From positions 32,001 through 96,000 of the IMG/VR virus record IMGVR_UViG_3300045594_000287: a DNA stretch of 64,000 nt. One strand, 5' to 3'. Source of the stretch: a virus (taxonomy: Duplodnaviria > Caudoviricetes). The number at the start of each line of letters is the position of its first letter. The first letter of the stretch is position 1. The position numbers and the translations under genes are program-made. The notes beneath the pieces were generated by a model, which did not search any database, was not told the origin of the DNA, and saw only the letters and a program-made list of their open reading frames with translations. Below are positions 48,501 to 64,000 of this stretch, piece after piece.

Positions 48501-49752
48501 TACGACCTATACGACGGGAACCATTATCCATACGAATATCGGAACGTATCGTGTAGTAGCTGGACCTTGCGGGCCAAGCATGCCTACATCGAAAGATGTG
48601 AATGAAGAGATCAAAGATGGCTCTCTCATAGATAAATATATCGGGACAGGAGATGTATGGCATGCGTCTACGCATTATGACGTAGGAGACATTGTGATCG
48701 ATAACACAAAGATATATCGCTGCATCGTAGCCGGCACTTCCGCATCAAGCGGCTGGGGTCCGGTAGAACTACAGGGAACCATCATCGATGGCCAGAATAC
48801 GTGGGAAACGTTGACAGCTGTTGGCATATGGAGAACCTCCGGGAAGACCTATAAAGACGGCACTTACTTCCTTTGCGACGATAGCGACGGGAAGCATATC
48901 AATGTCTACTTATCATACCCGGGCGCATCGGGAGATCAAGAGCCGACTGATACATCCGGATCCTCATTCAAGAACGGTGATATCTACATGGAATTCGTAA
49001 GCCATAGCCAAGGGTATCCAGACTGGGCAGAGAAGACGGCATATGCGATCGGTGATCGGGTTATCTCAAACGCTCGCGTCTATGAATGCATATTCGATGG
49101 CAAGGTAGCACTTCCTCATCGCATGATGTTCAACAACATCGAAACGAACGTAAGCAGCGTCACTCCATTCTTATTCAAGGAAAAGACAAGCATACCTATA
49201 CGGATGAGTGATGATCGCTGCGAGATCGTATTCAGGGATTGCGCCAATATATCAAGCTCGTCTATCCCTATCGGGATAGCATGGTTTGGACTCATAAGCA
49301 ATCCTTCTCCTAGCATATCGTATGAGTTCGGAGCTCCGTCAGGTGCAGATATGAAACAGATCCAGGATTCTATCAGCACACTGCAGACATCACTCAGTCA
49401 GTGCTTGAGTGCAGGATCGATGAAGGATATCTACAGGTTCCGTGGAAACGTTGCCCGCTACGAGGATCTGCCAGCACAAGCAGATCGTGGCGATGTGTAC
49501 AATATCGTTTCCGCTGATGCAACCCACAAGCTTGCCCCTGGAGCGAACGTAGCCTGGAACGGCACAGAATGGGATGCCTTGGGCGGACAAACAGGTACAG
49601 GAACATCTACAGGCCCTGCAAGCTATTACGACACCATAACGGATGCCGAGCTCGATTACATCATAAGCGGGCAAGGCATACCGGGAGATGACCCGCATAG
49701 TGCAGATGCATTGACGGATAAGGATATCGATCAGATCATTGATTCCAATTGA
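45559..49752 (+). CDS. Tail fibre/tailspike with pectin-lyase-like beta-helix and an array of carbohydrate-binding (CBM5/12-like) repeats
   Basis: LKTTKKNVIGAINEL coil, TLGYFYVGDEGGATY and FGAPLNGTDDD tailspike motifs, beta-helix rungs, and about 8 W.A...Y..GD.V.....Y.C repeats. Confidence 0.75.
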   Translation: MDTEFNKVQAEVLTTDVTTNPYMDETPRYSTNKGLKTTKKNVIGAINELLEAIGELTDGSGADARVSKIIDVVGNFFNNPDLLTKLKSIDNSLIEAVCDINVQLQELKKKQDDNSLDQITKTIEEFRSIVKDAKDTAYEAKKIAQQALSEIERISDARSTGVKKYNIVSDMIKDTGLRCDLYVETLGYFYVGDEGGATYHIEANNLNKPWAIQLDNGYYACIAETKRVTYRMFGAPLNGTDDDGQAMAWAHDYANSIYTKDETGRIFQYPVTVENHHGQIYKKNKTFISCYTNVDLSGSTLILDDNNSTWFGLYVLGDNDSNYYNYEFTPEQKAELVEDSYHFSMLDNSIPGNVAIKMDEGPYVARDDAGYMYTVNRRELLIHDMHGICASPLVNDWSDAGGRDINCPTTDEITKVVSLYHHTTHSTVSFTHIPNQRICFTGCDVLLNQGADKYCSILWVKRHNCIVKDFVMRPHRDKLRNSMFKNSMIYIWDSYNVVVQNIQGFNSSGRSDDGKKWNATSGYMVRMTNCSDVVVRDCRLLGYWGATAMDSTKNIRFERCQINRIDSHDYVSNLSIDDCIIYNHGVQVGYGTGMLSITNCAFYLKPIVDMPYPDNHLLELNLSYGRVFGGKVYINNCRCQSFDSSDYKLVKAEFSPNAVSIQPQFKFPEITIENIKVDLPKGTNLIYIQVEGSRDAHSGTTATKPRHITYQTEDNDIIWEYHGRVFDWAPGVRVEVDDVFKNAYGYFVCRKAGQLDTKKNPDDTSGNWFANGSSECRFIGVSAIWRARHKYNVNDIIVVEPNHDFPGFVYKCVNVKKAGGESNGEMPVHEELGKVVLEGTQVPLDGIPWKYIGKKANLIKDWPVGGEIVKDEYYLCGRNIYHVIQSGTTDPQTSPTQRGWFFQEITGKAVVEYVGGLWEPQMWFDLNSYCIANDNVYQCVEHYGTTTGEYPQYNNGYANDNDIIWKDLGSTKDLLRSWTAHTTYTTGTIIHTNIGTYRVVAGPCGPSMPTSKDVNEEIKDGSLIDKYIGTGDVWHASTHYDVGDIVIDNTKIYRCIVAGTSASSGWGPVELQGTIIDGQNTWETLTAVGIWRTSGKTYKDGTYFLCDDSDGKHINVYLSYPGASGDQEPTDTSGSSFKNGDIYMEFVSHSQGYPDWAEKTAYAIGDRVISNARVYECIFDGKVALPHRMMFNNIETNVSSVTPFLFKEKTSIPIRMSDDRCEIVFRDCANISSSSIPIGIAWFGLISNPSPSISYEFGAPSGADMKQIQDSISTLQTSLSQCLSAGSMKDIYRFRGNVARYEDLPAQADRGDVYNIVSADATHKLAPGANVAWNGTEWDALGGQTGTGTSTGPASYYDTITDAELDYIISGQGIPGDDPHSADALTDKDIDQIIDSN

Positions 49753-49764
49753 GGAGGCTAATAA

Positions 49765-52095
49765 ATGGCAGATACAAAGGATTACTTCCTTGACCGCGAG
49801 GGACTCGCATATTTCTATCGGCGGATAAGCAAGAAATTCGCGAAGAACGTGACGGTCAACGGAGTAGGGCAGGATGACAGCGGAGCGATAACAGTCGACT
49901 CCGTTGCCCATGCCAACACGGCAACTGAAGATGAATATGGTAACAGAATTGCCATGACATATGCAACAAAAAAAGAATTGTCTGATGCGAAACTAAATGG
50001 CGGCGGCGGGAATACTCCAACTCCATCTCTGAGTGGATACATTAAAACAATTAATGGCTTATCGGCGGACAGTAATGGGAATATCACCATTACTCAGGTG
50101 GATAAGGCAAATTCAGCTACGACTGCAGCGACTGCCGCAAAAGCAGATACCGCAACGAACGCAACGAGTGCAACAAAAGCAGGGTCTGCTGATAATGCCG
50201 ATCATGCAAACAAAGCTGATCTTGACAGCGATGGAAACAATATCGTAACTACATATGCTACCAAGAAAGAACTCTCAGACGCTAAAAAAAGTTTTAGCGG
50301 AGGAGGAAGTTCTGGCGGCGTAAAACAGATATTCAATACCGTACAAGAATTAAAGGTAACCTCCGGGCTGCCAGTAGACAGTTACGTTCAAACACTTGGC
50401 TATTACAACTACGGAGATGAAGGAACAGGAACATACCGTATCGCCACAGCAAGTGAAAATGAATGGGATGTTCCATTGGCCGATGGCAAGTTCGCGATCC
50501 TTTCGAATAAGGATCGTGTAACTTATGCGATGTTTGGAGCAAAGCTTGACGGAAAAACTGATGATGAGAAAGCTATCATGAATGCACACGCTTATGCAAA
50601 TGTATGTGGAGCAAAAGTAGAAAACCACCACGGAACTATATACAAGAAAAGCCCAGCGGTTATCCGATGTCTAACGAGCGTAGACCTTTCCGGGTCGAAG
50701 CTTATCATGGATGATAACAATACTGCATTCTTCTCCTGGTGGAAGCTCGGCGACTGCATGGAAAGTCAAAGTGTTCATGAATTTGACATGTCCACTTATA
50801 AAAGCCAATTAACAGCCGGCACAAGCGGAATCAACTTTGCAGATAACGGACCACAGCTACCTCAAAACGTAGTAGTAAAACTCAGCGAAGATCCATATAT
50901 GACTCGTAATGACTCTGGTAATCGATACAATGTAGATCGTACGGAGTTATTCGTTCACGATGTAAATGGAATTTGTACTGGCCCGCTTATTGATGATTGG
51001 GTAAATGCAGGAAACCGGACTCTGCCGGGAACCTCAGATAAATCAACATTTATTTGTACATACTCGGCCATACCTAAAAACACATTGACATTCGTAGGCT
51101 GCGAAGTTCATATCAAAGTATCTGCAAAAACGCAGGTTGGTTTGATACAGTGCACCAGGCACAATGTTGTCATCCGTGACTTTACAATCATTGTCGATCC
51201 GGAAAGCATGCATAACATCCAGCTATTTAAGGCTGCTATATTTTACCTGAGGGAGTGCTATAATGTCACACTGGAAAATATCATAAGCACGAATCTGGCT
51301 GGCTTCAATACGGCCGAAGCAAAAGCAACGTCTGGCTATGTATTCGATGCAAACTGCGCAATGAAAATCCTTATAAGGCATTGCCACTTCAATGGCTATT
51401 GGGGATCGACTTGCATGGACAACATAAAAGACGTCCATATCGAAGACTGCACCACTAACCGTATCGATGTCCATAACTATTTCAGGGATCTGTACATCCG
51501 TGACGTTACGTTACAGACCCACGGAATCCAAATTGGCTACGGTTCCGGTATCTGCAGCATAGAGAATGTCACATGCAGTTATCAGCCATTGAATGGTATG
51601 ACGCATCCGAATGCTTTCTTGGAATTTAACAATAGTTATGGGCAACTGTTTCATGGAATGCTTTCGATCAACAATCTCGTATTCGAAGTCTTCGGCCCCG
51701 GCGGCGATTCAGACAGCAATCCAGTTCTTTGTTATCTTGAATTCAATGACGGTGCTGCTTGTGTAGATGAATCGATCAAACAGACATTACCAGAGATGCG
51801 TTTCAAAAATATATGTTTTAATGTACATAATAACTTACCTCTATATTTCTTTGAAATATGGGGGACGGCATCCAGTACGGTATATAATCCCCGCTTGATC
51901 AGCCTTGAGAACATCATATGCAATCAAGATAAAGCTTATATGGCTTTGGTTCACGATGGAGTAAAGGTGACGACAGCAAACACGAGCGACGTCGTTGGCA
52001 GCAAAATATCTATCCAAAATGTCCCAGGATTTACCAATACGGCTACATGGATCGGCAGTGGAAAATCTCCAACTGTTAAGAACTATGACGCCTAA
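49765..52095 (+). CDS. Tailspike paralog with beta-helix (776 aa)
   Basis: AGGAGG RBS. Aligns by eye with 45559..49752 (TLGYYNYGDEG, FGAKLDGKTDD, VENHHG.IYKK, GYWG.T.MD, NRID.H.Y, HG.Q.GYG.G). Confidence 0.75.
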   Translation: MADTKDYFLDREGLAYFYRRISKKFAKNVTVNGVGQDDSGAITVDSVAHANTATEDEYGNRIAMTYATKKELSDAKLNGGGGNTPTPSLSGYIKTINGLSADSNGNITITQVDKANSATTAATAAKADTATNATSATKAGSADNADHANKADLDSDGNNIVTTYATKKELSDAKKSFSGGGSSGGVKQIFNTVQELKVTSGLPVDSYVQTLGYYNYGDEGTGTYRIATASENEWDVPLADGKFAILSNKDRVTYAMFGAKLDGKTDDEKAIMNAHAYANVCGAKVENHHGTIYKKSPAVIRCLTSVDLSGSKLIMDDNNTAFFSWWKLGDCMESQSVHEFDMSTYKSQLTAGTSGINFADNGPQLPQNVVVKLSEDPYMTRNDSGNRYNVDRTELFVHDVNGICTGPLIDDWVNAGNRTLPGTSDKSTFICTYSAIPKNTLTFVGCEVHIKVSAKTQVGLIQCTRHNVVIRDFTIIVDPESMHNIQLFKAAIFYLRECYNVTLENIISTNLAGFNTAEAKATSGYVFDANCAMKILIRHCHFNGYWGSTCMDNIKDVHIEDCTTNRIDVHNYFRDLYIRDVTLQTHGIQIGYGSGICSIENVTCSYQPLNGMTHPNAFLEFNNSYGQLFHGMLSINNLVFEVFGPGGDSDSNPVLCYLEFNDGAACVDESIKQTLPEMRFKNICFNVHNNLPLYFFEIWGTASSTVYNPRLISLENIICNQDKAYMALVHDGVKVTTANTSDVVGSKISIQNVPGFTNTATWIGSGKSPTVKNYDA

Positions 52096-52106
52096 GGAGG
52101 ATTAAT

Positions 52107-53231
52107 ATGGCTACAGGATCTTATTTAGATGTTGCCGGTGTTGCTCACTTCTTCACGAAGCTATGTAATGTTTTCGGCAAAACTAAGAAAGTAAATGGAA
52201 TCACACCAGATGAAACCGGCAATGTAAAACTCGAAACAATATCAAAAGCAATCTCGGACCAAAATGGCCATGAGATATCAAGTACATATGCAACGAAGCA
52301 GGAACTTGCCCAGGCATCGATGGCCTCATCCGTCGGAATCATTTCCGGGGTATCGATGGTGAACAGCATAAGACCAGACAAATTTGGCAATGTTGAGATT
52401 GATGTTATAGACAAAGCGATGTGCGATCAGTACGGTAACACAATTTCCTCCACATATGTATCAAATGCTGCACTTAACGATAAGCTCGCTCTATATCCAA
52501 CCATGAAAGAAATGTGGAAAGCCGTATCCTCGGGGACGGTTATTTCGGTAAATGGCGTGCATCCAGATCAAGAAGGGGATGTACAGATCAAGAACGTAGA
52601 AATTGCATCCAGCGCAGGGGTGGCTCAGAACGCAACCTGCGATAGTATCGGACGAGTAATCACAACAACATATGCCACAAAAGAAGATCTCAAGAATCTA
52701 TCGCCTAGCAGTGGAGGTGGCGGCACAGTAAAAGCTGTAAACGGTATCTCTCCAGATGGAGTAGGTAATGTTACCATTTCTACAGTAGCAAACGCTACTC
52801 GGGCTACTAACGCCACATACGACGGTACTGGTAATGAAATCTCCAGTTTTTATGCTACTAAAACGGAATTAGAAGCAGTCAAGAAAAGTATCTCGGATAA
52901 TAAGGGGGGCGGGACAACCCCAACACCTACTGATTCAACCGGATACGTAAAAAACGTTTCCACTAAGGTGAAGACAGGAGATTGTAATTTGCTGGTTGCT
53001 GGTGGCACGTATATAATTGATTCTGCTGTCACGAATAACCCAGCAAACACAGAAGGATATCTGCAAGTACTTCCTGGAACTGATACGGATCCAAGCAGCA
53101 GTACATGCGCTCAACTATTTATTGCTGCAAGTACTGGAGTTCTTTATACTAGAACATCTTATTGGCAAGAACCAGATTACAACAAGATTGCATGGAGAAG
53201 TTGGAATAAACTCACTCCTGCAGCATCATAA
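52107..53231 (+). CDS. Short tail fibre with four repeat modules and a C-terminal knob-type domain
   Basis: Four VNG..PD..GNV.I...D..G..I..TYATK.EL modules. The C-terminal GTY.....NNP...GYL.V....CAQ......LY.R.....W..W pattern is knob-like. Confidence 0.7.
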   Translation: MATGSYLDVAGVAHFFTKLCNVFGKTKKVNGITPDETGNVKLETISKAISDQNGHEISSTYATKQELAQASMASSVGIISGVSMVNSIRPDKFGNVEIDVIDKAMCDQYGNTISSTYVSNAALNDKLALYPTMKEMWKAVSSGTVISVNGVHPDQEGDVQIKNVEIASSAGVAQNATCDSIGRVITTTYATKEDLKNLSPSSGGGGTVKAVNGISPDGVGNVTISTVANATRATNATYDGTGNEISSFYATKTELEAVKKSISDNKGGGTTPTPTDSTGYVKNVSTKVKTGDCNLLVAGGTYIIDSAVTNNPANTEGYLQVLPGTDTDPSSSTCAQLFIAASTGVLYTRTSYWQEPDYNKIAWRSWNKLTPAAS

Positions 53232-53235
53232 ATAT

Positions 53236-53267
53236 AGACTCCGACCTCGGTCGGAGTTTTTTCTTTT
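53236..53267 (+). terminator. Rho-independent terminator
   Basis: GACTCCGACC-TC-GGTCGGAGTT followed by a T-rich tract. Confidence 0.85.
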
Positions 53268-53354
53268 ATCTGTACAATTTGTAAGTGTACGTTGGGTGTT
53301 CTACAGCGTAATCAATTTATGAAATACAATTTCATGAATAAAGGAGGAATACTC

Positions 53355-53876
53355 ATGGAAGGATTATCAGGCATCGTCTCCTCGCTGGCAACAGTTACTC
53401 CTGGTTACGGTATCTTTCTATCCATCATGGCCCTAATTGGCTTCTATGTTTGGTACTATATGTCCAAAATACTCAAGCCAAGAATTGACGAACGAGAGAA
53501 GAGAGAAACCGCAGCGGTGAAAAACCAAACTCATTCATTGAATCTACTACAGAAAACAGTAGATGCAAATGAAGGAGTAACCAAACAACTCATGTCAACG
53601 ATGAACCGACTTGATCTCACCTTAGAAAAAGTCTCTGAAAAACTCAGCAGCGTAGACGAGCGTACCTCCAATGATTCAAAGATGCTTAGTGATATTAATA
53701 ACAACATGCCGTCAAAGGATAATGTTAATAAACTTCACGAGCGAATCAATGCAATCACTGATAACATGGCAGACAAAAATGATGTCAAGCGCATCATGGA
53801 TGCTGTCAATGAGGTCAGCAACGGAGTATCCAAAGCAAATGAAGCTTTGGTCGAGCTCCGAGCAAAGCAATCCTAA
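53355..53876 (+). CDS. Holin-like membrane protein (single N-terminal TM helix plus coiled coil)
   Basis: AAGGAGG RBS before the ATG at 53355; GYGIFLSIMALIGFYVWYYM...REKRE followed by heptad repeats (BhlA/UviB-like layout). Confidence 0.5.
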   Translation: MEGLSGIVSSLATVTPGYGIFLSIMALIGFYVWYYMSKILKPRIDEREKRETAAVKNQTHSLNLLQKTVDANEGVTKQLMSTMNRLDLTLEKVSEKLSSVDERTSNDSKMLSDINNNMPSKDNVNKLHERINAITDNMADKNDVKRIMDAVNEVSNGVSKANEALVELRAKQS

Positions 53877-53881
53877 GCTGG

Positions 53882-53913
53882 TATCCCTCGCATCAATAGC
53901 AGTGCGAGGGATA
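53882..53913 (+). terminator. Stem-loop after the holin-like gene
   Basis: TATCCCTCGCA-N10-TGCGAGGGATA; poor U-tract. Confidence 0.5.
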
Positions 53914-53992
53914 TTGGTATCTATGGAGGTTTTTACACCTCTACAATGCGTAATATAGTCAATAGATAATGTCGAAAAGAAAGGTGAAATAT

Positions 53993-55360
53993 ATGGCAAA
54001 TGATACTTATAAAGAAGCTACTTACCAGGAAAAGATCGCCACTGGTAATGGCGTCAGGAAAATATCCGAAAAAGTCATCCAGGATGGAAGGGCCCTTGTC
54101 ATCACAGACGAAGACCTTAATAAATACTCCTGGAGCGATCTGCCAGATGGTACGATCAAAGTAAATCCGAATACGGGATTGATGGACGTCAAACTGAAAG
54201 GGCAGACGAGTTGGGTTCCAGCAGGGATCAAAAATGACGGAACGATCTGCATTGCAAAAGACAGCATGATCATACAGGAAGATTTCGTGATCGAGAAAGT
54301 ACCAGCATATGCGAATGGTCGTTACGGTACAACATCCAGCGAAACGTTCACATATTCCATGCCGACGATAGACACACAAAGTAATCCGTCGACTACCCCG
54401 AACTCATTCACTGGGAAAGTTACAGCTGACGGAAAAGGCTTGATCTTCCGTCTTACGCAGGGCACGTATATGAATCTACGTAATCACCTGGAAGTGATCA
54501 TTGATGATGTACTGTATCGTTCTTTCCGCACTGGCGGAGTAGATGAGCGCAACGAACAGGAATTCATCATCTATGACCAGCTGGAAGCTGGGCAAAAGAT
54601 CACTGCTAAATACATCCGCATCATTCGGATCGGTAATCCGTATCCACGAGTATTCATGAATACCAATACTCCGGATTCTTCAGAAGCCGGTGACATGTGG
54701 ATTGATCCTGCAGGCGACATGGAACAGAACATCTACAAGAACTATCTTGATAACATCGAGATAGATCCAAAAGTAAAAACCTTCATGGATGGCATCACAT
54801 CCTCTTACCAGGCTGCGGTAACTGACTCGATGAAGGGCTATACCTCCAACAACCCGGACCTCAAGAAGCGTATCGATGATTTCTGCGCTACCCTGGATAA
54901 GGATTATCCAAATACGGGTATGGGGAAAGACATGGCCAAAGCTCTCCTCAGTTATTGCTCTGGGATTATTCCTTGGGAATTCACCACACATCCAAGTACG
55001 ATTGCCGGCTATGGCATCCAGGATAACTTATCGTATAATGGCCACGTTCATAAGAAGCAGGATATCATAGATTTCCCGAGTTCGCTTCCTGCCAGTGGCG
55101 GTAACTCGAATACAGTAGGCGGATATGCACCGGGGCGCAATGCGAACCAGCTGCTTGTAATCGATTCAAACGGAAAAATCCCAACTGCAGTACTCCCAGA
55201 TAGTGAGCAGAAGGATTCCGATTTCCTGACAACAGGACCGAACCCGCCGGCTGTCCCTGTGAACGACAGGAGTGTATGGATCTGTACTAAGGCAGGAGAG
55301 CAATGTATAAAGCTTTATACGAACAATAACTGGATCATACTTCACGCGGCATGGTCATAA
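53993..55360 (+). CDS. Tail fibre-associated structural protein
   Basis: AAGGTG RBS before the ATG at 53993; fibre motifs P.....GDMWID, PSTIAGYGI.D, GHVH...DI.DFPSSLPA.GGN..TVGG. Confidence 0.65.
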   Translation: MANDTYKEATYQEKIATGNGVRKISEKVIQDGRALVITDEDLNKYSWSDLPDGTIKVNPNTGLMDVKLKGQTSWVPAGIKNDGTICIAKDSMIIQEDFVIEKVPAYANGRYGTTSSETFTYSMPTIDTQSNPSTTPNSFTGKVTADGKGLIFRLTQGTYMNLRNHLEVIIDDVLYRSFRTGGVDERNEQEFIIYDQLEAGQKITAKYIRIIRIGNPYPRVFMNTNTPDSSEAGDMWIDPAGDMEQNIYKNYLDNIEIDPKVKTFMDGITSSYQAAVTDSMKGYTSNNPDLKKRIDDFCATLDKDYPNTGMGKDMAKALLSYCSGIIPWEFTTHPSTIAGYGIQDNLSYNGHVHKKQDIIDFPSSLPASGGNSNTVGGYAPGRNANQLLVIDSNGKIPTAVLPDSEQKDSDFLTTGPNPPAVPVNDRSVWICTKAGEQCIKLYTNNNWIILHAAWS

Positions 55361-55374
55361 GGAGGAACTAAACG

Positions 55375-56688
55375 ATGGCAGCATTGAATGCAAATAAAAT
55401 CCAGTCTAGAAACCTTGACCCGGATTTTAAGAATAAGCTCGCTATAAGAGGCGAGATATCGATGGACGACTTATCAGAAGATGTGCGAGCAACCATATCG
55501 AATGGTAAGGGTGATGTAAACTATACAGCCTTGAGCAATACTGTTGAAGGACTGAAAAACACCAAGGCTGATAAAACGACCTTGGACAATTACTTCAACA
55601 AGACTACGGACAAACTCTCGAAAGAGCAGTTGGATGACAAGCTGCAGAGTACGATATCGAACACTGAGAACATCCTTACGGTAGCTCAGGCTACGTACAG
55701 ATTGAAGTCAGAACCGATCACGGAAAAGGATATCTCCAATGATTTCCTCACGAGACTGACCGGCGTAGAAAATAAGGCAGCAGCTGCTGCGACCCAGGCC
55801 CAGGCTTCAGCCGACACAGTCAATACTCTTACGACACAGGTAAACGAAGTGAAGGAGACTGCGAAGTCGATGACTGACGCTATCAGTCAGATAAGCCTGC
55901 TCAATACGACGGTATCATCATTGGATAAGAACGTCGGCACGAACCGTTCGTCATGTGAGAACCTGGACAACAAGATCGTCCAGACGAACAGGGATATGGA
56001 TGCCCTTCGTCTGAAGATAGATGCCAATACGTATTCCAGCACAAATAAAATCCCTCTTGATTCAATAGATGATAAAGTGAAATCTGGCCTTGACGATATC
56101 AAGACCACGCAGGATTCCATCAAGGTGCTGCAAGGGGTCCAGGGGAAGCTTTCTGAAGGAAAGTCCGGCCAGATTGTTTCGATCTGCGACGGCAGCGGCA
56201 CGATGAAGGCATCGGATCTTATCACGCCATGTACCATTGTCCATACGGATAATGATTTTGAGAATGGCAAGAAAGCCGGTAAACCAATCATCTTCTACCC
56301 TGAAGCCGGTAAGCTTTCATTCTCGACAGATGGTAAGGCAAAGATGAGATCTCCTCTGAATACGATTGCGGACAATTCAGATGCCACTCTTTTGCAGGAT
56401 GAGACAACACCAAAGGACAGCAATGGCAAAGCCGTTTATTCTTCTTTCATCAAAGCAAAAGACATGTGGATCTTCCAGAACCATTTCTTCCATGATGCAG
56501 AAACGGGCGAGATCCTTTTCAACAATCCGTATAATGACAACTTAACCACGTTCATGCCGGGCGGGATCGTAAGTAACCTGAACACGATCAGCGGGAATAC
56601 TACGAAAGTGCAGTCTACGATTACAGATATGCAAGCAGCCATAGCGAACCTGCAGACCAGGATCGCAGCACTGGAAACCAATAAATAA
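55375..56688 (+). CDS. Coiled-coil tail fibre/whisker-like protein
   Basis: AAGGAGG RBS; long heptad repeats; KADK motif; C-terminal LQTRIAALE. Confidence 0.6.
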   Translation: MAALNANKIQSRNLDPDFKNKLAIRGEISMDDLSEDVRATISNGKGDVNYTALSNTVEGLKNTKADKTTLDNYFNKTTDKLSKEQLDDKLQSTISNTENILTVAQATYRLKSEPITEKDISNDFLTRLTGVENKAAAAATQAQASADTVNTLTTQVNEVKETAKSMTDAISQISLLNTTVSSLDKNVGTNRSSCENLDNKIVQTNRDMDALRLKIDANTYSSTNKIPLDSIDDKVKSGLDDIKTTQDSIKVLQGVQGKLSEGKSGQIVSICDGSGTMKASDLITPCTIVHTDNDFENGKKAGKPIIFYPEAGKLSFSTDGKAKMRSPLNTIADNSDATLLQDETTPKDSNGKAVYSSFIKAKDMWIFQNHFFHDAETGEILFNNPYNDNLTTFMPGGIVSNLNTISGNTTKVQSTITDMQAAIANLQTRIAALETNK

Positions 56689-56700
56689 AGGAGTGATACC

Positions 56701-57645
56701 ATGGCTATATTAAAATGGAAGAATGCGAAAGACTGGATCTCATTTTATGTTGATTCTATCGCACTCCGTTTGAGAAAAGATAAGAACCTCAGTGACGTGA
56801 ACGATGTCGTGGCAGCCAGGAACAACCTGGAGCTCAGTGGAGTGAATAACCACACCCATTATCACGACGACCATTATATGCCGCTGATAAATCGTGAAGA
56901 GAAATCACGTACCACGGAACGAGACTCTTCCTCGTTCTGCATCACAGGAGATGTCGAAGCTCCTTTTGTCGGCTTCACTAATGATATGAAAGTGATGTTG
57001 CAGGCGAAGAATGTCATCGCTACTACCACAATGATCAATGATGGAAGCAATATTCCAGTTAAACTTACCGGTGCAAGTAATACAGGAATACAACAAATCC
57101 GTACTACGGGGGTGACTGCTGATGCGGCAGGAAACCTCACTTCAACCAGCGTGCAGTCAGGTTCTATAAGCGGAACGGTAGCCAATTTCAGCACAGTAAA
57201 TGCTCAAAAAGTATACAATGCCATTTGGAATGACTATGCTGAATTCTTCCCCCGCGGTGGAGAAACCAACCCTGGCGATCTGATTATGCTTGACATTAAG
57301 AGCAAGAAAGAGCAATATATAAGAGCAACGAAAGATGCGCAGCTCATTGTCGGAGTCCATAGTGATGAATTCGCCATGCTCATCGGCGGAGAGAAGCCGG
57401 CTGCTGGCGAAGATTATTTCAAGACGAACATCGAGAAGTATATCCCCGTAGCCTTGGCTGGCCGCGTCCACGTCAACTTCACTGGCGCGTCTGCAAAGGG
57501 CGGGAAAGTAGTTCCGAGTGATATCCCGGGCTATGCACGTCTTTATAATCCAGAGAAAGATACTCTGGATAGAGTAATTGGATATCTCGTTGAATCCGAT
57601 GACTCCACGGGGGAAAGAAAGCTTAAGATCAAAATCGGGAGATAA
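56701..57645 (+). CDS. Tail fibre protein with C-terminal intramolecular chaperone/autocleavage-like domain
   Basis: KDKNLSDV.DV.AARNNLEL, HTHYHDDHY, and WNDYAEFF...GVHSD...IPVALAGRVHV...PGYA...VIG (peptidase G2/IMC-like pattern). Confidence 0.65.
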   Translation: MAILKWKNAKDWISFYVDSIALRLRKDKNLSDVNDVVAARNNLELSGVNNHTHYHDDHYMPLINREEKSRTTERDSSSFCITGDVEAPFVGFTNDMKVMLQAKNVIATTTMINDGSNIPVKLTGASNTGIQQIRTTGVTADAAGNLTSTSVQSGSISGTVANFSTVNAQKVYNAIWNDYAEFFPRGGETNPGDLIMLDIKSKKEQYIRATKDAQLIVGVHSDEFAMLIGGEKPAAGEDYFKTNIEKYIPVALAGRVHVNFTGASAKGGKVVPSDIPGYARLYNPEKDTLDRVIGYLVESDDSTGERKLKIKIGR

Positions 57646-57647
57646 TT

Positions 57648-58628
57648 ATGGATCTGATCATTAAACCTACGAAGGCTTGCAACTTCGCTTGCACCTTCTG
57701 CTCTTCTAATAAAATATCGAAGGCATTAACACTCGACCTGGAAAAGGTATTTCCGATCCTTCTCGAGAATGATGTCCAGACGATCATAGTAAACGGCGGC
57801 GATCCACTGATGGTCCCGCCGGCTTATTATGAGAGGCTTATCAATTTCCTGGACGAACATGACATGAAGACTACTATATCTTTCACGTCGAATCTCTGGG
57901 ATTTCTTTTTGCATCCAGACAAATGGGAAAAACTATTCAAGGATGAACGAATGGGAGTCTGCACTTCGTTCCAATATGGAGGAGAACGAAGGATAGCTGA
58001 TGGCCAAGAATTCACGGAAGAACTGTTCCGTAAAGTGTTCTCATTATTCGAAGACAGGATTGGATACAAGCTCTCATTCATCTCTGTCATCACCAGGAAC
58101 AACGAAGAACGAGTACTCGATACCGTAAGGCTTGCGAAAGAACTCGGAACGGAATGCAAGATAAACCCAGCTTTCAAATCCGGACGTAGCGAGGAGTTCT
58201 ACCCCCTATATAAGGCGTATGGAAGATACCTCGATATCATCAAAGCTGGTCTGGCAGAATATGAGTTCAACAGCAAGAACCTCAAGCAGCTGTTTGGGTC
58301 AAGCAACGTGTGCTGCCCATACAACAGGAATTGCTACAAGACCATCCGTTGCATAAGTCCAGACGGACTGATCCATAGCTGCGGGGCCTTCAATGACGAC
58401 CATTACATGAATGCCGCCCAGGGGAAGAAGACATACTGCCTAGGCCAATATGACGAGAAAGAGCTGGCAAGGGATTTCAAGATGCTGAAGCCGGCATGCC
58501 TTTCCTGCGACATGTTCCGGTTCTGCAACTCATGCTACAAGCAGATCGCTGACATCACGAGCAGCGGCACGACGGAAGAACACTGCACAGGCATGAAAGC
58601 ATTAGAGGGGAGACTGAAAAGCATATGA
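57648..58628 (+). CDS. Radical SAM/SPASM-domain enzyme 1
   Basis: LIIKPTKACNFACTFC (CxxxCxxC), GGDPL, and C-terminal C..C...ISPDG.IHSC...CLSC.....C..C. Confidence 0.9.
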   Translation: MDLIIKPTKACNFACTFCSSNKISKALTLDLEKVFPILLENDVQTIIVNGGDPLMVPPAYYERLINFLDEHDMKTTISFTSNLWDFFLHPDKWEKLFKDERMGVCTSFQYGGERRIADGQEFTEELFRKVFSLFEDRIGYKLSFISVITRNNEERVLDTVRLAKELGTECKINPAFKSGRSEEFYPLYKAYGRYLDIIKAGLAEYEFNSKNLKQLFGSSNVCCPYNRNCYKTIRCISPDGLIHSCGAFNDDHYMNAAQGKKTYCLGQYDEKELARDFKMLKPACLSCDMFRFCNSCYKQIADITSSGTTEEHCTGMKALEGRLKSI

Positions 58629-59452
58629 CACTGTACATAAAAGTCACGGAAAGCTGCAACTTGCATTGCCCCTTCTGCTACATCAAGCAGAAGCCTGGTA
58701 CGATAGATATGGATTCGATCGACAGGGCAATGCAAGAGCTGCAGCCAAATCGAATCATCTTCCATGGAGGAGAGCCGCTCCTATATCCAAAGATCATCCT
58801 GGAGACGATCAAGCAGTATCCGGATATAGAATACTCGGTCACGTCGAACCTCATGGTTCCATTGACCGATCAGGTACTCGAAGTGATCAAGAGATGCAAG
58901 ATAGCTACAAGCTATTCCGTGGACAGGTTCACCGAAGAGCAATTCGAAGATTTCAAGGCGGCCGTGAAGATGGTAAGTTCTTACCAGCCGATAACCCTGC
59001 TTGTCACGTTATCCGAAGCCCAGCTGCAGCAGCCTCCAAAAATCCTGTCTGATACAATTAAGGAACTGGAGATCAGTAATATAACATTTGAAAGGCTTTT
59101 TACAGAACGCAAAAGCAAAGAGCTGTACGAACAAACGGACGAATATCTGCTGGAAGCATTCAAGCATGTCGATACCGAGAAGAACAACATGTTGCATTGG
59201 ATGGAAGACGCGATAAGGAGCAACGGCACCGTATTCAACCACGATTGCGATGTGCAGACATTGAATCCAGATGGTTCTCTTTGCGGATGCCCGAACCTCT
59301 ATCGAACGAGAATCCACGATCAGCGGAAAAGGGAATGCTTGTATTGCGATATATATCAATATTGCAAAGAAGATTGCCCGAGCTTCGGTGGCATATGCTG
59401 TTTTCCTAAGAAGACCTTCCAATCAATATTGAAAGCGAGCGTGAATAAATAA
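58625..59452 (+). CDS. Radical SAM/SPASM-domain enzyme 2
   Basis: YIKVTESCNLHCPFCY, FHGGEPLL, TLNPDGSLCGCP, CLYCDIYQYCKEDC. Confidence 0.9.
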   Translation: MTLYIKVTESCNLHCPFCYIKQKPGTIDMDSIDRAMQELQPNRIIFHGGEPLLYPKIILETIKQYPDIEYSVTSNLMVPLTDQVLEVIKRCKIATSYSVDRFTEEQFEDFKAAVKMVSSYQPITLLVTLSEAQLQQPPKILSDTIKELEISNITFERLFTERKSKELYEQTDEYLLEAFKHVDTEKNNMLHWMEDAIRSNGTVFNHDCDVQTLNPDGSLCGCPNLYRTRIHDQRKRECLYCDIYQYCKEDCPSFGGICCFPKKTFQSILKASVNK

Positions 59453-60003
59453 TGAATACAGGCGACACTATAACCCCTGAGGGTTTAGCATATCATATCA
59501 ATGATAACTTGAAAGAGAAGATTCAGGACTATGTGCATTGGTGGCTCAGCGCGCCACCGAACTTCGATGACAACTGGGATAAGATCTTGCAGAATACAGA
59601 CAACCTGGCTGCGATAACCAGTGACATGATCGGGAAGAAAGGCGAATGGCTCAATGCAGCTTCATTCTATAAGAATATCCAGGCTACCGTTAACTCCTGG
59701 TCAACTGTCCGCCCATTCAGCGTGATCGGATATAAAGGCAACAACACGAATGGTGGAACGCCTACCTATACGAAAGTGTATAGTGAGATGCGCTATGCCA
59801 ACATAAAGGTAGCACATGAAGACATACTCGGCCGGGCCGGGCAGCCTTTCACAGCCGGCAGCATCGCTTCTGCAGAAACCATGAACCAGCTGATAAACAA
59901 CATCTTCAGGCAGTGGAAAGATCTTCCTATCTATACCTATGAATCAAAGAACTGTCACGGCAACTGCCATGATAACTGCCATGGATCTGGCGGCTGGCGT
60001 TGA
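59452..60003 (+). CDS. 183-aa virion-like protein with C-terminal (NCHx)3 tail; candidate radical SAM substrate
   Basis: Ends ESKNCHGNCHDNCHGSGGWR; its only cysteines are in that tail; TAATG coupling to radical SAM 2. Confidence 0.75.
   Translation: MNTGDTITPEGLAYHINDNLKEKIQDYVHWWLSAPPNFDDNWDKILQNTDNLAAITSDMIGKKGEWLNAASFYKNIQATVNSWSTVRPFSVIGYKGNNTNGGTPTYTKVYSEMRYANIKVAHEDILGRAGQPFTAGSIASAETMNQLINNIFRQWKDLPIYTYESKNCHGNCHDNCHGSGGWR
59950..59985 (+). repeat. Three tandem 12-bp repeats encoding NCH(G/D)
   Basis: AACTGTCACGGC AACTGCCATGAT AACTGCCATGGA. Confidence 0.9.
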
Positions 60004-60022
60004 TAATACCGGAGGGGAAACA

Positions 60023-60724
60023 ATGACAAAAGATTCCGTACTCACTGCTCTTCCATTCACCGAGGAGCAGCTCGATAAATACTTAGATGACATGGACAAG
60101 CATAGCTTCTATATTGAATTCAGTGATTGCAAACTGAAAGGCAACAAGCTGCTGAACTACATATACAACTCGGGAATGGAATGTGATCTGCATCTGACCG
60201 ATTTTACTTCGAACGATCTCGAGGGGTTCGTGAAAGACTATATCTGTACAGACAAGATCGTCAACATCCCTGCTGTGAATGATATCTGGTGTGATATCCT
60301 CCTGTATCGAATAGAGAAAGAGATATTCGATACGAATAAAGAAGAGAAAGAGTTTATAGAAAGATTTTATGAAGATCACGGTGACCTGATTGATGAGTTG
60401 TTTGATATATTGTTTAGCTTAAAAGCTCATCTTATTGCTGCCATCGTCAACGATGATGATGGAATGATTGAGGGGAAAGAATCACGCAGCATGAATGAGG
60501 TTGGCCTTAACTTCGTCACGCTCAGGAACTCTGGAGCATTCTGGAACGTCCTTACCAGGATAGACTCCCTTGGGCTTCCCGTGTACAACTACAAGGATTT
60601 CCAAGAATTCAGCTACGATGGAAGAAAGATACGCCACAATTTCCTTGATGAATTCGGACCATTCTCCATCTTAAGCATATACATCAAAGACTCTATAGAA
60701 AGGGCTGGAAGTGCCGATGAATAA
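60023..60724 (+). CDS. Hypothetical acidic protein in the radical SAM cluster (233 aa)
   Basis: GGAGGGG RBS before the ATG at 60023; no CxxxCxxC motif. Confidence 0.7.
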   Translation: MTKDSVLTALPFTEEQLDKYLDDMDKHSFYIEFSDCKLKGNKLLNYIYNSGMECDLHLTDFTSNDLEGFVKDYICTDKIVNIPAVNDIWCDILLYRIEKEIFDTNKEEKEFIERFYEDHGDLIDELFDILFSLKAHLIAAIVNDDDGMIEGKESRSMNEVGLNFVTLRNSGAFWNVLTRIDSLGLPVYNYKDFQEFSYDGRKIRHNFLDEFGPFSILSIYIKDSIERAGSADE

Positions 60725-61961
60725 AACTATTCCTATCAGACAGTACAAGATCGATTACGAGACCTTATCCAAAGAGTTCCCCGAGATCATCCCTGCAGAC
60801 ACAGAAGCTTCTATCGATGGCTTCATATCGAAAGGGAAACTTTACCTGAAATCCTCTGCGGATAAAAGTAACCCGCTTGTTATTGTCTCAAACGATCATA
60901 CATTTGACCATAAGTTCCTGGATAAGGAAGATACCATAACATTGAAGCTGGCTGATCCTGCCAAGTCATTCTCCACTATGCCAGAATATGGTTTCACGAT
61001 AGATGACAATATCAGCGTGCATCAGTTCACAGTAGATAAAGATATGGCTGATAAACTTATCAGCAATAATGGTTTCCATTATTGGGGGATGGACAAGCAG
61101 CTGCATGTCAATGCCCACACATACAAACCAGATACGGTCATCGAATATGCGAATCGTATCCTCGAGAAAGGATATTCTTATCCGATCGTCTGTTATGTCG
61201 ATACGACCATCCAGATAGAGAAGAATGATTATATCCCATACCTGCATGAGCTGCTGGAAATCGGAAACGTCCCTTTTCGGATAATGACCTACAAGGACAT
61301 CAGGTATCTGATGCATGTGACTCCAGAATTGTATACGATAATATACGGGATTCCCAGTAATAAACGCTATCAGAAAGAAGATTCCGTTGACATAAGCAGC
61401 TTCCTCTTGACCAATTACAGCGATAAGCGCGACGCAATCAAGAACTACCAGATAAAGGTAAGCAAGCCTGAGGACTCGGAATATGCATATATCGACAACC
61501 CGTTTGATCAATGCTTCTCTTACTATTTCATTTTTGATTCCGACCATGCTTTCCTCAACGATCGGCTCATAACCAACATCATCAACAGGAATGACCTCGA
61601 TTATGTATCCTGGGATGGAGATGAGTCTGGAGACATGGCAGCCGGCATGCATCTGAAGAATGCATTATATGGACGCACTCCGGTCAAGCAGATCCATCAT
61701 GCCCATCCAGGTGAGGCAAAGGACACGGATGCTTTCGAGGAATATTGCGTGGAACATCATATCGACCTTGGTCTGTTTGATATGTTGTCATTTGGATACT
61801 CGAACGATAAGATCGAATTTACGAAATCTATCCTGGATAAATTCAAGGCGGATCTCATCGTTATCGAGAATGACCAGTCAGCACTCTTGGGAGTAGAGAT
61901 GCTGCAAGACCTTCTCGACAAGGACGACCTTTGTATCAAATATCTGAAACTTAAGAAGTAG
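60717..61961 (+). CDS. Hypothetical acidic protein in the radical SAM cluster (~414 aa)
   Basis: Long ORF overlapping the upstream stop; no recognised motif; start at 60711 (GTG) or 60717 (ATG). Confidence 0.7.
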   Translation: MNKTIPIRQYKIDYETLSKEFPEIIPADTEASIDGFISKGKLYLKSSADKSNPLVIVSNDHTFDHKFLDKEDTITLKLADPAKSFSTMPEYGFTIDDNISVHQFTVDKDMADKLISNNGFHYWGMDKQLHVNAHTYKPDTVIEYANRILEKGYSYPIVCYVDTTIQIEKNDYIPYLHELLEIGNVPFRIMTYKDIRYLMHVTPELYTIIYGIPSNKRYQKEDSVDISSFLLTNYSDKRDAIKNYQIKVSKPEDSEYAYIDNPFDQCFSYYFIFDSDHAFLNDRLITNIINRNDLDYVSWDGDESGDMAAGMHLKNALYGRTPVKQIHHAHPGEAKDTDAFEEYCVEHHIDLGLFDMLSFGYSNDKIEFTKSILDKFKADLIVIENDQSALLGVEMLQDLLDKDDLCIKYLKLKK

Positions 61962-61972
61962 GGGGAACGAGC

Positions 61973-62923
61973 ATGATTGTATTCATTAAGCCGGTAGAGG
62001 CATGTAACCTCAAGTGCCTGCATTGCTACAATTGTGCCAACAGCAACTCCATCGACTTCAAAGCTCTTGGCTCTTTCCTTTCCTGTGTGAATAGGGAACA
62101 GCCGAAGAGCTTTTTTGTCTTACATGGCGGAGAGCCGCTGCTGGCAGACACGGATAAGACATTGGACTTGGTCAAGGGTTTCCCTGATAATCCATGGAGG
62201 ATAACCACCAACCTTACTATGCCGCTCACAAGGGGCAGGATGGAGATCATCTCCTTGATGGATGAGGTCAGGACGTCTTTCGATATCGGTATCCGCTTCG
62301 GAACACTCCACAATCTCATGATGTGGAAGCACAACATGCAGGAACTGGTAGCAAATGGCATAAACGTCTACGTGAATATATGCTTCACGAAACAGCTGTT
62401 AAAAAAAGATCCAAGGAAACTGATGGACATGATGCACCACCTTCATATAAAGACATTGAGCTTCGAACGGATCTGTAAGGCCGGCCGAGCGGCTGAAGGC
62501 GTGGACTTCATTCCATCATATGAAGATGTCGATGAATGGTTATGCAAGCTGTACCAGGTAGCAAAAGATTTTAAGGACGTGAAAGTAAGAGAGTTCGAAA
62601 ACATTGCCTTTGGCATCATGAAAGAGTATAATTACTACAGAGGCAAGGAGTGCTGCATCGCCACGCTTACCGTGAATGCCGATGGCACTATTGGCCGCTG
62701 CCCAAACGATGCGCAGGTATCAGTTTATGGAAACATGAAAGAACCGGAAAAGGCCATTGCGGCCAAGATGTGTGCCGGATGTCAAAGGGTAAAGACGGAA
62801 TGCCTTTCATGTAATTCATTCGAAGATTGCCAAGGGGGATGCCCCGCAGCAGAATGGCAGGGGAGCTCCTGCCCATACCCGAAAAAGCTATCCCAATTGA
62901 TCAAGGAGGATCTCGGCCGATGA
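61973..62923 (+). CDS. Radical SAM/SPASM-domain enzyme 3
   Basis: FIKPVEACNLKCLHCY, LHGGEPLL, CC..TLTVNADGTIGRCP, CLSC.....CQGGC.........CPYPK. Confidence 0.9.
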   Translation: MIVFIKPVEACNLKCLHCYNCANSNSIDFKALGSFLSCVNREQPKSFFVLHGGEPLLADTDKTLDLVKGFPDNPWRITTNLTMPLTRGRMEIISLMDEVRTSFDIGIRFGTLHNLMMWKHNMQELVANGINVYVNICFTKQLLKKDPRKLMDMMHHLHIKTLSFERICKAGRAAEGVDFIPSYEDVDEWLCKLYQVAKDFKDVKVREFENIAFGIMKEYNYYRGKECCIATLTVNADGTIGRCPNDAQVSVYGNMKEPEKAIAAKMCAGCQRVKTECLSCNSFEDCQGGCPAAEWQGSSCPYPKKLSQLIKEDLGR

Positions 62924-63777
62924 ACATACTACCTAGTTACGCTTGCAACTTTCATTGCCCATTCTGTGCGATTCACCAGCAGGATTGCGGGCAGCTGCTC
63001 AATCTTGACTATGCCAAGCAGCAGCTGTCTTCGATTCCCGGCATAAGGCAGATAGACATCCTCGGAGGGGAACCATCGCTATTACCAGATGAATACTTAT
63101 CAGAGCTGATTGACATATGCACATCAAGACTTAATGGCAAGCTGCCAGGCATGTATACCAATCTCAGTCGTGTATCTCCATTGATCGACAGGGTCAAGCT
63201 CACTGTAAGTTTCGATCCTGGGATGAGAGAAGCAAGGAACAGCGTTATCCAGAACATGCTCATGTTGGATAATGAATTCGATATCAACACGATTGTCAGT
63301 TCAAAGCTCGTAGCTCTGGGTGCCGGCCATATAGAGAAGATGCTATCGAGATTCCGTATGGCAAAGCGAATATGCTTGAGCTCTTTCACGCATTTTCCAG
63401 GCATGCCAGATTATACCCCAGCTCCTGAGGATATGCTGAAATTCATGAAAGATATCCTGTCATTGGATGAGCCACATCGTATCCACTTCTCTCCTATATC
63501 ATCTATAAGAGAAGGATCACGAAAAAGCTATGCAGCAGAGGAATCTGCAGAGATGCTGCCAAGTGGCAAGTATCGATATGCACTTCGAGACGTCACGAGC
63601 GCAAAAGAGTTCGAGACATTTGACGCCGTCAAGAAATACCGATACAACAATGAATCTTATCCTGGCGAATGCAATAGCTGCAGATACAGAGGACAATGCC
63701 TGAATAAATACCGGACAGAAGCTGGATGCTATTGGGACAAGAAGATCATGGAGACAATAGAGGAGAGGCTATCATGA
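62920..63777 (+). CDS. Radical SAM enzyme 4 (reduced SPASM region)
   Basis: AAGGAGG RBS and ATGA overlap at 62920; ILPSYACNFHCPFC, ILGGEPS, C-terminal CNSCRYRGQC...C. Confidence 0.88.
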   Translation: MNILPSYACNFHCPFCAIHQQDCGQLLNLDYAKQQLSSIPGIRQIDILGGEPSLLPDEYLSELIDICTSRLNGKLPGMYTNLSRVSPLIDRVKLTVSFDPGMREARNSVIQNMLMLDNEFDINTIVSSKLVALGAGHIEKMLSRFRMAKRICLSSFTHFPGMPDYTPAPEDMLKFMKDILSLDEPHRIHFSPISSIREGSRKSYAAEESAEMLPSGKYRYALRDVTSAKEFETFDAVKKYRYNNESYPGECNSCRYRGQCLNKYRTEAGCYWDKKIMETIEERLS

Positions 63778-64000
63778 ACATATACGCAAGCTATGCCTGC
63801 AATGCAAATTGTGCATTCTGCTCACTGCATGACCGCCCGGGTAAACGGATTGCCCTGGATTGGCTAGAGCAGCAACTGGAAAAGCACGAAGACCTATGCG
63901 AGGATATCAACATCCTGGGCGGGGAACCATCCGTACTGCCACTTGATTATCAGGAGCGCCTGGTCGACATCTGCACGAAGGCGGCAGGAGAGAAGCCGTA
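63774..64000 (+). CDS. Radical SAM enzyme 5 (3'-truncated; absent from the ORF track)
   Basis: AGGAGAGG RBS and ATGA overlap. Manual translation gives MNIYASYACNANCAFCSLHDRPGKRIALDWLEQQLEKHEDLCEDINILGGEPSVLP... Confidence 0.85.
   Translation, partial: MNIYASYACNANCAFCSLHDRPGKRIALDWLEQQLEKHEDLCEDINILGGEPSVLPLDYQERLVDICTKAAGEKP

Follow-up and report, generated by a model that had tools for sequence, protein, structure and literature searches.

The 64,000-nucleotide stretch of viral DNA analysed here (the window), which corresponds to positions 32001–96000 of the 106,938-bp IMG/VR record IMGVR_UViG_3300045594_000287, contains at 59452–60003 (+ strand) a gene, hereafter the target gene, whose 183-residue product consists of a body (residues 1–167) that models as a compact alpha/beta domain and of a C-terminal tail (residues 168–183) in which a Cys-His pair recurs every fourth residue. 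The best reading of the data, which we hold to be probable though far from secure, is that this product is a protein-sized substrate of radical S-adenosylmethionine (SAM) enzymes whose tail becomes cross-linked. Indeed, the target appears to be the most plausible radical SAM substrate of its gene module because it combines an invariant and exposed terminal motif with a fast-evolving body, because its gene is obligatorily linked to genes for SPASM-type enzymes that lack an RRE (the RiPP recognition element, RiPPs being peptides that are made by the ribosome and modified after translation), and because the body is retained in virions; since the gene always lies among radical SAM genes (62/62 loci), enzymatic cross-linking is the most likely fate of the tail. 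A preliminary description of this DNA, which had singled out the product as a candidate substrate, is partly supported: its observation is confirmed and, as a candidate for modification by the radical SAM enzymes encoded nearby, the protein is a strong one, the chemistry is left open and the fibre-like body is not supported.

The C-terminus of the product is NCHGNCHDNCHGSGGWR, i.e., ...ESKNCHGNCHDNCHGSGGWR, and the only Cys of the protein (C168, C172 and C176) all lie within its last 16 residues. The region encoding the tail (59950–60000, + strand) comprises three 12-bp units at 59950–59985 (AACTGTCACGGC, AACTGCCATGAT and AACTGCCATGGA), each specifying N-C-H-x, followed by SGGWR; the units, whose length is below what Tandem Repeats Finder detects, were checked by eye. 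Open reading frame (ORF) and sequence bear out the earlier remark that all three Cys belong to a tail with a 4-residue period encoded by three 12-bp repeats. A six-frame scan of the whole 106,938-bp genome found no second CH..CH pattern, the target tail being the sole occurrence. The ATG of the target overlaps the stop codon of the upstream radical SAM gene (58625–59452) in the sequence TAATG, an arrangement that suggests translational coupling, and the protein matches no family in Pfam, NCBIfam or PHROG.

Comparison of 96 unique homologues shows that the last 16 residues of the family conform to C-H-x-(S/N)-C-H-x-(S/N)-C-H-G-S-(R/G)-G-x-R. In the logo built from the 88 canonical tails among them, Cys occupies positions 1, 5 and 9 and His positions 2 and 10 in 100% of the cases each, position 6 is His in 98% and Tyr in the remaining two, positions 3 and 7 are freely variable, and S or N is found at position 4 in 99% and at position 8 in 97% of the tails. 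The remainder is Gly at position 11 (62/88), Ser at position 12 (84/88, 95%), R/G at position 13 (87/88), Gly at position 14 (75/88), R/W/F/Y at position 15 (85/88) and Arg at position 16 (87/88, 99%). The window tail, CHGNCHDNCHGSGGWR, conforms to this logo. The residue two positions after His is small and polar throughout the units, and Tyr is the sole replacement of His, being found in P0011, in P0024 and in the first unit (C-Y) of L072, a four-unit member located on a contig of a metagenome-assembled genome (MAG) and lying outside the 96. Three units are present in 92 of the 96 members, two in one, four in two and five in one, and 54/96 are free of Cys outside the tail. The preliminary description had left it to an alignment of homologues to tell whether Cys, His and the third residue are invariant and whether the number of repeats varies, and had regarded a tail not conserved among homologues as fatal to its reading: C and H are conserved at 98–100% and S/N is near-fixed at 97–99%, the number of units hardly varies, and the tail is nearly invariant across the 96 members.

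The divergence of the body makes this constancy more telling. An exhaustive HMMER search with the target yielded 36 proteins at E ≤ 1e-3 (E from 1e-28 to 1e-4), approximately 34 of which have 124–263 amino acids and align over the full length of the target (residues 1–183) up to their extreme C-terminus. In the alignments A1 and A2 the bodies share ~23–35% identity, while C172, C176 and H177 do not vary and conservation is ≥90% at C168, H169, H173 and S179; with bodies so divergent, a CH tail that is better conserved than any other part of the protein is not a product of chance. The median pairwise identity of the target body is 29%, as opposed to 62% for the adjoining radical SAM enzyme and 46% for a conserved 233-aa partner protein encoded next to it.

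The family thus delineated, which we call the phage "CH-tail" family and to which the window protein belongs, includes phrog_35144, ORF068 of phage RSL2, gp170 of Atu_ph07 and PA10_00065 of DT01. A pattern scan of IMG/VR yielded 64 loci, and a profile search of a 5.8-billion-protein set at least 757 clusters at E ≤ 1e-5, all of them labelled "hypothetical" and none carrying a precomputed Pfam domain; a scan of genome contigs lists at least two further loci, both on phage-like contigs within MAGs. Only chance-level matches were obtained in the library scan of all 60 members of alignment A2, and the hidden Markov model of phrog_35144, which matches other family members, stays short of E 1e-3 with the window protein. 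Neither the latter nor one IMG/VR member found a match among GenBank phages by tblastn; BLAST masks the CH tail as low complexity and its alignments end ahead of the tail, and the members present in cultured phages were reached solely via the adjoining radical SAM and 233-aa genes. The C-terminal unit with its tail is also found in fused forms, where it follows a Pfam Gly_rich_2 domain; three proteins of 461, 436 and 587 aa (P0040, P0041 and P0042) carry this tail, two of them with an N-terminal Gly_rich_2 domain. In six IMG/VR loci (L021, L025, L035, L038, L052 and L054) two short target copies of 124–138 aa, each with its own CH tail, are found in tandem, both directly 3′ of a protein of 2000–3100 aa. 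Finally, a viral neighbour cluster in the ESM Atlas bears PF27846 ("tSAM_targ_Cxxx_rpt", Pfam 38.1) on 25% of its members, a share suggesting that part of the CH-tail family may already have been flagged in silico by curators.

An ORF with a radical SAM motif is present within 5 kb of the target in all 62 related loci with a called target (62/62), directly adjoins it in 48/62 and occurs with a median of four per locus. The common gene order starts with a gene for a cupin-like protein of ~170 aa and a radical SAM gene, continues with the target and the genes for the 233-aa protein and a ~365-aa protein, and ends with two to three more radical SAM genes and small conserved ORFs; the same order is found in the cultured jumbo phages RSL2, Atu_ph07 and pPa_SNUABM_DT01. 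In the genome under study six radical SAM genes surround the target. Their CX3CX2C motif starts at residue 9–11 in five of the six enzymes and at residue 44 in the sixth, so near the N-terminus that no room is left for a full N-terminal RRE. The full SPASM signature CX2CX5CX2-3C is found in three of the six, including the 326-aa enzyme (57648–58628, CX3CX2C from residue 11), and two others are paralogues with four C-terminal Cys. Among characterised enzymes, those matched best are anSME and cross-linkers of peptides and proteins.

As to the protein itself, in the AlphaFold2 model obtained with a 60-sequence alignment (mean predicted local distance difference test score, pLDDT, 89.9; predicted template modelling score, pTM, 0.83) three long helices (9–25, 69–85 and 141–156), each starting with a G-x-x-I-x-A unit, pack on a three-stranded sheet (86–96, 106–118 and 161–167), the tail (168–183) having a pLDDT of ~51–54. 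Accordingly modelled, the body is a confident compact alpha/beta domain and the tail is predicted to be flexible or disordered and exposed. The resemblance of three G..(I/L).A..h helical starts had already been noticed; hhalign detects it between units 2 and 3 (83% probability, E 8.8e-6) and, with lower values, between 1 and 3 (53%) and between 1 and 2 (18%), and each unit opens one long helix of the model. What is not supported is the idea of a fibre-type body, the model being a compact alpha/beta domain that matches no solved structure: Foldseek found no match in the PDB at E ≤ 1e-3, a VIA fold search (best Z 3.2) found no similar solved structure, fibres included, and the structural neighbours in the ESM Atlas do not exceed a TM score of 0.35. 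In BFVD only family members were matched, with TM up to 0.77, namely a 178-aa protein, A0A2L0UZF9 of Atu_ph07 and 504–660-aa proteins of an uncultured myovirus. No fibre family is recognized in the target protein by Pfam or PHROG, and the profiles of the target and of the 233-aa and 416-aa proteins encoded 3′ of it gave nothing meaningful against PDB sequences. The missing fibre-fold match leaves room for a new virion fold.

That the body is retained in the particle can be deduced from a cultured relative. The cultured carriers are the Ralstonia phages RSL2 and RSF1, the Burkholderia phages FLC6, FLC8 and S13, the Agrobacterium phage Atu_ph07, the Sinorhizobium phage Phosso and the Pseudomonas phage pPa_SNUABM_DT01. 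In the published electrospray ionization tandem mass spectrometry table of Atu_ph07 virions, Gp170 is listed with 31.89 kDa, 8 unique peptides and 35% coverage, and was found in gel fragments 1–9 with the highest abundance in fragment 1; on the scale of this gel, fragment 13 holds 9–15-kDa proteins and fragments 1–2 proteins >100 kDa (PMC6102473 supplement). The translated homologue has 296 aa and the tail CHSSCHASCHNSRSRR, and its mass computes to 31.89 kDa. The gel was run with material boiled in sodium dodecyl sulfate (SDS), and the peak in fragment 1 means that a 32-kDa protein was enriched in its uppermost part. The adjoining radical SAM proteins and gp169 are absent from the same virion table (PMC6102473 supplement). 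The preliminary description had considered a folded body of ~165 aa kept on the virion; the body models as folded and gp170 is present in virions, in agreement with this premise. No family member was detected in RP12 and RP31, two phages whose virion tables were consulted and in which the radical SAM arrangement differs, and the papers on S13 and FLC6 contain no virion proteomics.

From these data we infer that the tail is modified, that enzymes of the module act on it and that covalent bonds form within it, according to the following scheme. The gene product would be a virion-associated accessory protein of the tail-fibre/baseplate module, in which a fast-evolving compact alpha/beta body would bear at its C-terminus a flexible 16-mer that does not vary, (C-H-x-S/N)x3 and then G/R-G-x-R, serving as substrate of the co-encoded RRE-less radical SAM/SPASM enzymes. 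Acting on the tail before assembly or in the course of it, these would abstract hydrogen atoms and introduce intramolecular cross-links of a covalent nature, most likely either as three-residue His-to-Ser/Asn C–C links of the kind found in triceptides and in the HXS system, or as Cys thioethers such as those of ranthipeptides, CrpA and QhpC, or as both. By analogy, H-x-S/N with Tyr as the sole substitute of His corresponds to the aromatic-x-acceptor pattern of triceptides and HXS, and Cys followed by a polar acceptor to the pattern of ranthipeptides and CrpA; sequence by itself does not separate a His-x-S/N cyclophane from a Cys thioether, and both or either may be formed. Since C, H and S/N are all fixed, neither linkage alone explains the pattern, and we favour, judging from the motif, more than one modification per unit or a role of Cys as the ligand that would position the neighbouring His on an auxiliary cluster. 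In natural-product RiPPs the leader is conserved and the core variable. The combination of fast body and fixed core is the reverse of this; it agrees with a chemical handle that is kept constant while the virion protein bearing it varies.

Several points weigh against this scheme. No modification is on record for any member of the CH-tail family, and with four to six radical SAM genes per module some or all of the enzymes may serve other substrates. No radical SAM enzyme of this genome attains the cut-off of any NCBIfam maturase, so that the chemistry of the characterised enzymes cannot be transferred by homology: the best matches (TIGR04083, DynA, DarE, PapB, anSME, cyclophane synthases and HxsC) score 15–55 bits against cut-offs of 265–650, and the best ones of the 326-aa enzyme (TIGR04083, DynA and anSME) are likewise far under theirs. 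As to the virion evidence, the Atu_ph07 sample was purified with polyethylene glycol and also contains non-structural proteins, many of its proteins smear over several slices, so that the signal at the top of the gel is a hint only, and the table does not say if the C-terminal tryptic peptide of gp170 was detected.

Alternative explanations must be weighed against cross-linking. The tail, left unmodified, could bind a metal (Zn, Fe, Ni or Cu) or an Fe-S cluster, possibly at a site formed between subunits, the radical SAM enzymes acting on another virion protein or on a small molecule. Phage fibres do use His-coordinated metals (T4 gp37 and gp12), and three Cys-His pairs in a flexible terminal segment, together with the lack of any other Cys in more than half of the members (54/96, as mentioned above), would suit such a site. 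Nevertheless, we consider it unlikely, because metal binding leaves unexplained the 95–99% conservation of S/N two residues after each His, the restriction of His substitutes to Tyr and the fixed S-x-G-x-R end, would turn the 62/62 linkage to radical SAM genes into a coincidence, and would have to rely on a body that models as a monomeric globular domain instead of a trimeric fibre; the reading of the preliminary description in which overlapping CxxxCH units bind metal, Fe-S or heme is less supported for the first two of these reasons. Attachment of c-type heme was considered separately and rejected, the spacing being CX3CH and periplasmic attachment being judged unlikely for a particle protein, with no search made for export signals or Ccm genes.

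Two further possibilities retain enzymatic modification and assign it a different outcome. In a true RiPP or cofactor precursor, comparable to those of pyrroloquinoline quinone (PQQ) and mycofactocin, the 167-aa body would be a giant leader from which the modified 16-mer is cleaved off. PqqA and MftA have their core at the extreme C-terminus, where the invariant core of the CH-tail family is also found, and cassettes with several radical SAM enzymes are typical of cofactor pathways; yet library scans of the module's proteins reveal neither a protease nor a transporter family, virions of Atu_ph07 contain the body of the homologue, leaders are as a rule the part that is conserved and yet this body is hypervariable, and the fused forms put the same tail on larger Gly_rich_2 proteins, all of which makes a cleaved precursor very unlikely. 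We give equally little credit to the oxidation of the terminal Ser (or of a Cys) to formylglycine by an enzyme resembling the anaerobic sulfatase-maturating enzyme (anSME), the aldehyde then reacting on and possibly linking a partner. The tail end S-x-G-x-R (S 84/88, G 75/88, R 87/88), which in the window has the form S-G-G-W-R (59986–60000, + strand), resembles the sulfatase motif (C/S)-x-(P/A)-x-R; the rS316-type profile (A5, built on the type of the enzyme at 61973–62923) aligns full-length to anSME structures (PDB 4K37, E 9e-8), TIGR03942 (anSME) is among the best NCBIfam matches of two enzymes, and the Atu_ph07 homologue peaks in the top gel slice. However, the anSME score is 36 bits, far under the cut-off of 349, Gly stands where the canonical Pro/Ala belongs, some members end in ...SKGW without Arg, and the three C-H-x-S/N units are left unexplained; besides anSME, profile A5 also matches 8VPO, ChlB and CteB, the last (5WGG, E 3e-6) over the N-terminal part only. 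A related idea extends the cross-linking reading itself: the matured tail might be a reactive or cofactor-like group (an array of His/Cys-derived cross-links or formylglycine) that staples the protein covalently to a fibre or baseplate partner or provides a metal or redox function. Stapling to a partner would explain why the 31.9-kDa Atu_ph07 homologue peaks at the top of an SDS gel; even so, we regard this extension as rather improbable.

The gene order in the window is a variant of the common one, with two radical SAM/SPASM genes 5′ of the target and, 3′ of it, the 233-aa and 416-aa genes followed by three radical SAM genes that begin at 61973, 62920 and 63774, a further one lying beyond the window; all those mentioned within the window are on the + strand. 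The first of the two upstream enzymes (57648–58628, 326 aa) matches Pfam PF04055 (1.1e-9) and phrog_1802 (1.5e-40), and the second (58625–59452, 275 aa) has PapB as its best NCBIfam match (46.6 bits against a cut-off of 340). The 316-aa radical SAM/SPASM enzyme (61973–62923) has homologues in 59 loci and is of the type that in most other loci lies directly 5′ of the target. It is followed by a 285-aa radical SAM enzyme with four C-terminal, twitch-like Cys (62920–63777; PF04055 1.6e-7; homologues in 49 loci). The longest ORF at this position (62827–63777) has a TTG start and overlaps the preceding radical SAM gene by ~97 nt; the ATG at 62920 is the likelier start, giving 285 aa and placing CX3CX2C at residue 9 as in the paralogue at 63774. 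This fifth radical SAM gene begins in the window (63774–64000) and ends at genome position 96655, and the sixth lies beyond it (genome 98640–99539).

The gene for the 233-aa partner (60023–60724), a conserved protein of unassigned function matching phrog_20767 (2e-19), is preceded by a strong ribosome-binding site (GGAGGGG), lies directly 3′ of the target in most loci and has a homologue in 48 related loci (44% mean column identity in alignment A3). Its model (pLDDT 88.4) has no Foldseek match, the protein found no usable match in the ESM Atlas, and a VIA search with the model returned weak and non-significant similarities to the C-terminal halves of ChlB (Z 4.2), anSME (Z 2.9) and CteB (Z 2.9); the partner may, on the basis of this model, be a degenerate, cluster-less relative of radical SAM/SPASM enzymes that presents the substrate. 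The next gene (60711–61961) encodes a 416-aa protein without family match, the positional equivalent of the ~365-aa gene found elsewhere, and it diverges fast (alignment A4; median pairwise identity 17%).

Upstream of the module lies a block of tail-fibre genes (45559–57645, + strand), PHROG tail-fibre matches being found for 45559–49752 and 49765–52095. When 52000–64000 was scanned, no terminator-like site of the + strand was found between genes from 53969 to the end of the window; the sole convincing one is at 53236–53259 and two weak ones fall inside ORFs. The 314-aa protein encoded just 5′ of the first radical SAM gene (56701–57645) contains near residues 50–60 (~56845–56890) the His-rich stretch NNHTHYHDDHY, which may represent a site for metal or one more candidate target. 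Farther upstream, three giant + strand ORFs (6517–12957, 13063–21714 and 21863–30130) encode proteins of 2146, 2883 and 2755 aa without Pfam match, the first two with no Cys and the third with 36. In the Chiangmaivirus module a dihydrofolate reductase gene is found among the radical SAM genes of Ralstonia phage RSL2 (L069, record 78940–79476), and cupin and 2-oxoglutarate-Fe(II) oxygenase genes are reported in the S13/FLC6 annotations; none of these three was detected in the module of the window.

No published description of the CH-tail family was found in the literature, the papers on the carrier phages listing the radical SAM genes only; as many as 12 radical SAM genes per genome, to which no function was assigned, were reported from marine viruses in 2017 (PMC5332604). 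Cross-linking by radical SAM enzymes is known mainly in small antibiotic peptides and in few cellular proteins, i.e., quinohemoprotein amine dehydrogenase, CrpA and HxsA, and here a similar set of enzymes is hard-wired to one small protein of a virion module; the phage lineages concerned number in the hundreds and extend from T4-like viruses of the sea to cultured jumbo phages that infect Ralstonia, Burkholderia, Agrobacterium, Sinorhizobium and Pseudomonas. If the cross-linking reading is correct, phages mature their own particle proteins by radical chemistry, many hitherto unexplained phage radical SAM genes gain a function, and a compact and portable 16-residue tag with its own enzymes becomes available, possibly of use in protein engineering; should stapling also occur, it would represent a previously undescribed, enzyme-installed covalent chemistry of phage particles. 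The availability of hosts and phages in culture makes the question open to direct testing.

Among the known systems, the one defined by CXXX repeats (TIGR04115 maturase, PF27846 target) likewise involves a protein that is encoded beside a radical SAM/SPASM gene and has, close to its C-terminus, Cys with a period of four residues; its definition is not known to include fixed positions for His and S/N, and the highest score that the TIGR04115 model attains anywhere in the genome is 14.6 bits, the cut-off being 350. Cross-linking of a whole protein by thioethers is performed by CrpC on CrpA in Methanococcus voltae (PMC13692751) and by QhpD on QhpC of quinohemoprotein amine dehydrogenase. The target resembles CrpA and QhpC in that an entire protein would be the substrate, with Cys ahead of a polar acceptor at fixed spacing, and both maturases have a SPASM domain and three clusters. 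On the other hand, CrpC possesses an RRE and Cys residues abound along the whole of CrpA, whereas the target has three Cys only, each paired with His, and with the enzymes described here the thioether maturase models remain below their cut-offs, PapB (NF047865) as given above and TIGR04463 with 16 bits against 525, TIGR04463 and the QhpD-type models together giving 16–18 bits against 453–525. With anSME (PDB 4K36–4K39), an RRE-less radical SAM/SPASM enzyme of ~370 aa acting on a protein Ser or Cys, the six enzymes share the lack of a full N-terminal RRE; unlike that case, no sulfatase is present and Gly replaces Pro/Ala in the motif.

Triceptides, whose families (FxsB, GrrM, XyeB and YhhB) contain three-residue cyclophanes made by radical SAM/SPASM enzymes and which include the His C2 to C-beta links formed by HtkB and HaaB (PMC11499958), share with the CH tail the tandem aromatic-x-acceptor motif, the capacity of Tyr to replace His and the SPASM type of the enzymes. 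They differ in that their precursors are short peptides equipped with leaders and that recognition by their enzymes is usually of the RRE type, as opposed to a folded 167-aa body and no RRE, and in that the CH tail has a fixed Cys ahead of every His; the cyclophane-synthase models (XyeB, GrrM/OscB, FxsB, YhhB and AmcB) score 15–35 bits against cut-offs of 310–450.

In the HXS antiphage system, HxsA is matured by the radical SAM enzymes HxsB and HxsC together with HxsD (Li et al., Nat Commun 2026, PMC13128918), and a covalent change of +8 Da was mapped to its S-H-x-S-S motif (PMC13128918). HxsA is a defence effector of bacteria that is exported and binds peptidoglycan, and its repeat is devoid of Cys, whereas the target has C-H-x-S/N units, is encoded by a phage and has a homologue in virions; moreover, the target has no Pfam or NCBIfam domain and models as one compact domain, an architecture different from that of HxsA, and the enzymes described here do not reach the HxsB and HxsC cut-offs, HxsC (TIGR03977) scoring 22.3–23.9 bits against 267.9 and HxsB (TIGR03978) being absent from the NCBIfam matches listed. 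In spite of these differences, in HXS too the substrate is a protein of ~200 aa whose His-x-Ser repeats stand in tandem in basic surroundings, its maturation involving at least two radical SAM enzymes and small partner proteins, and tandem H-x-S/N units are precisely what the window tail (H-G-N, H-D-N and H-G-S) and 97–99% of the family members display.

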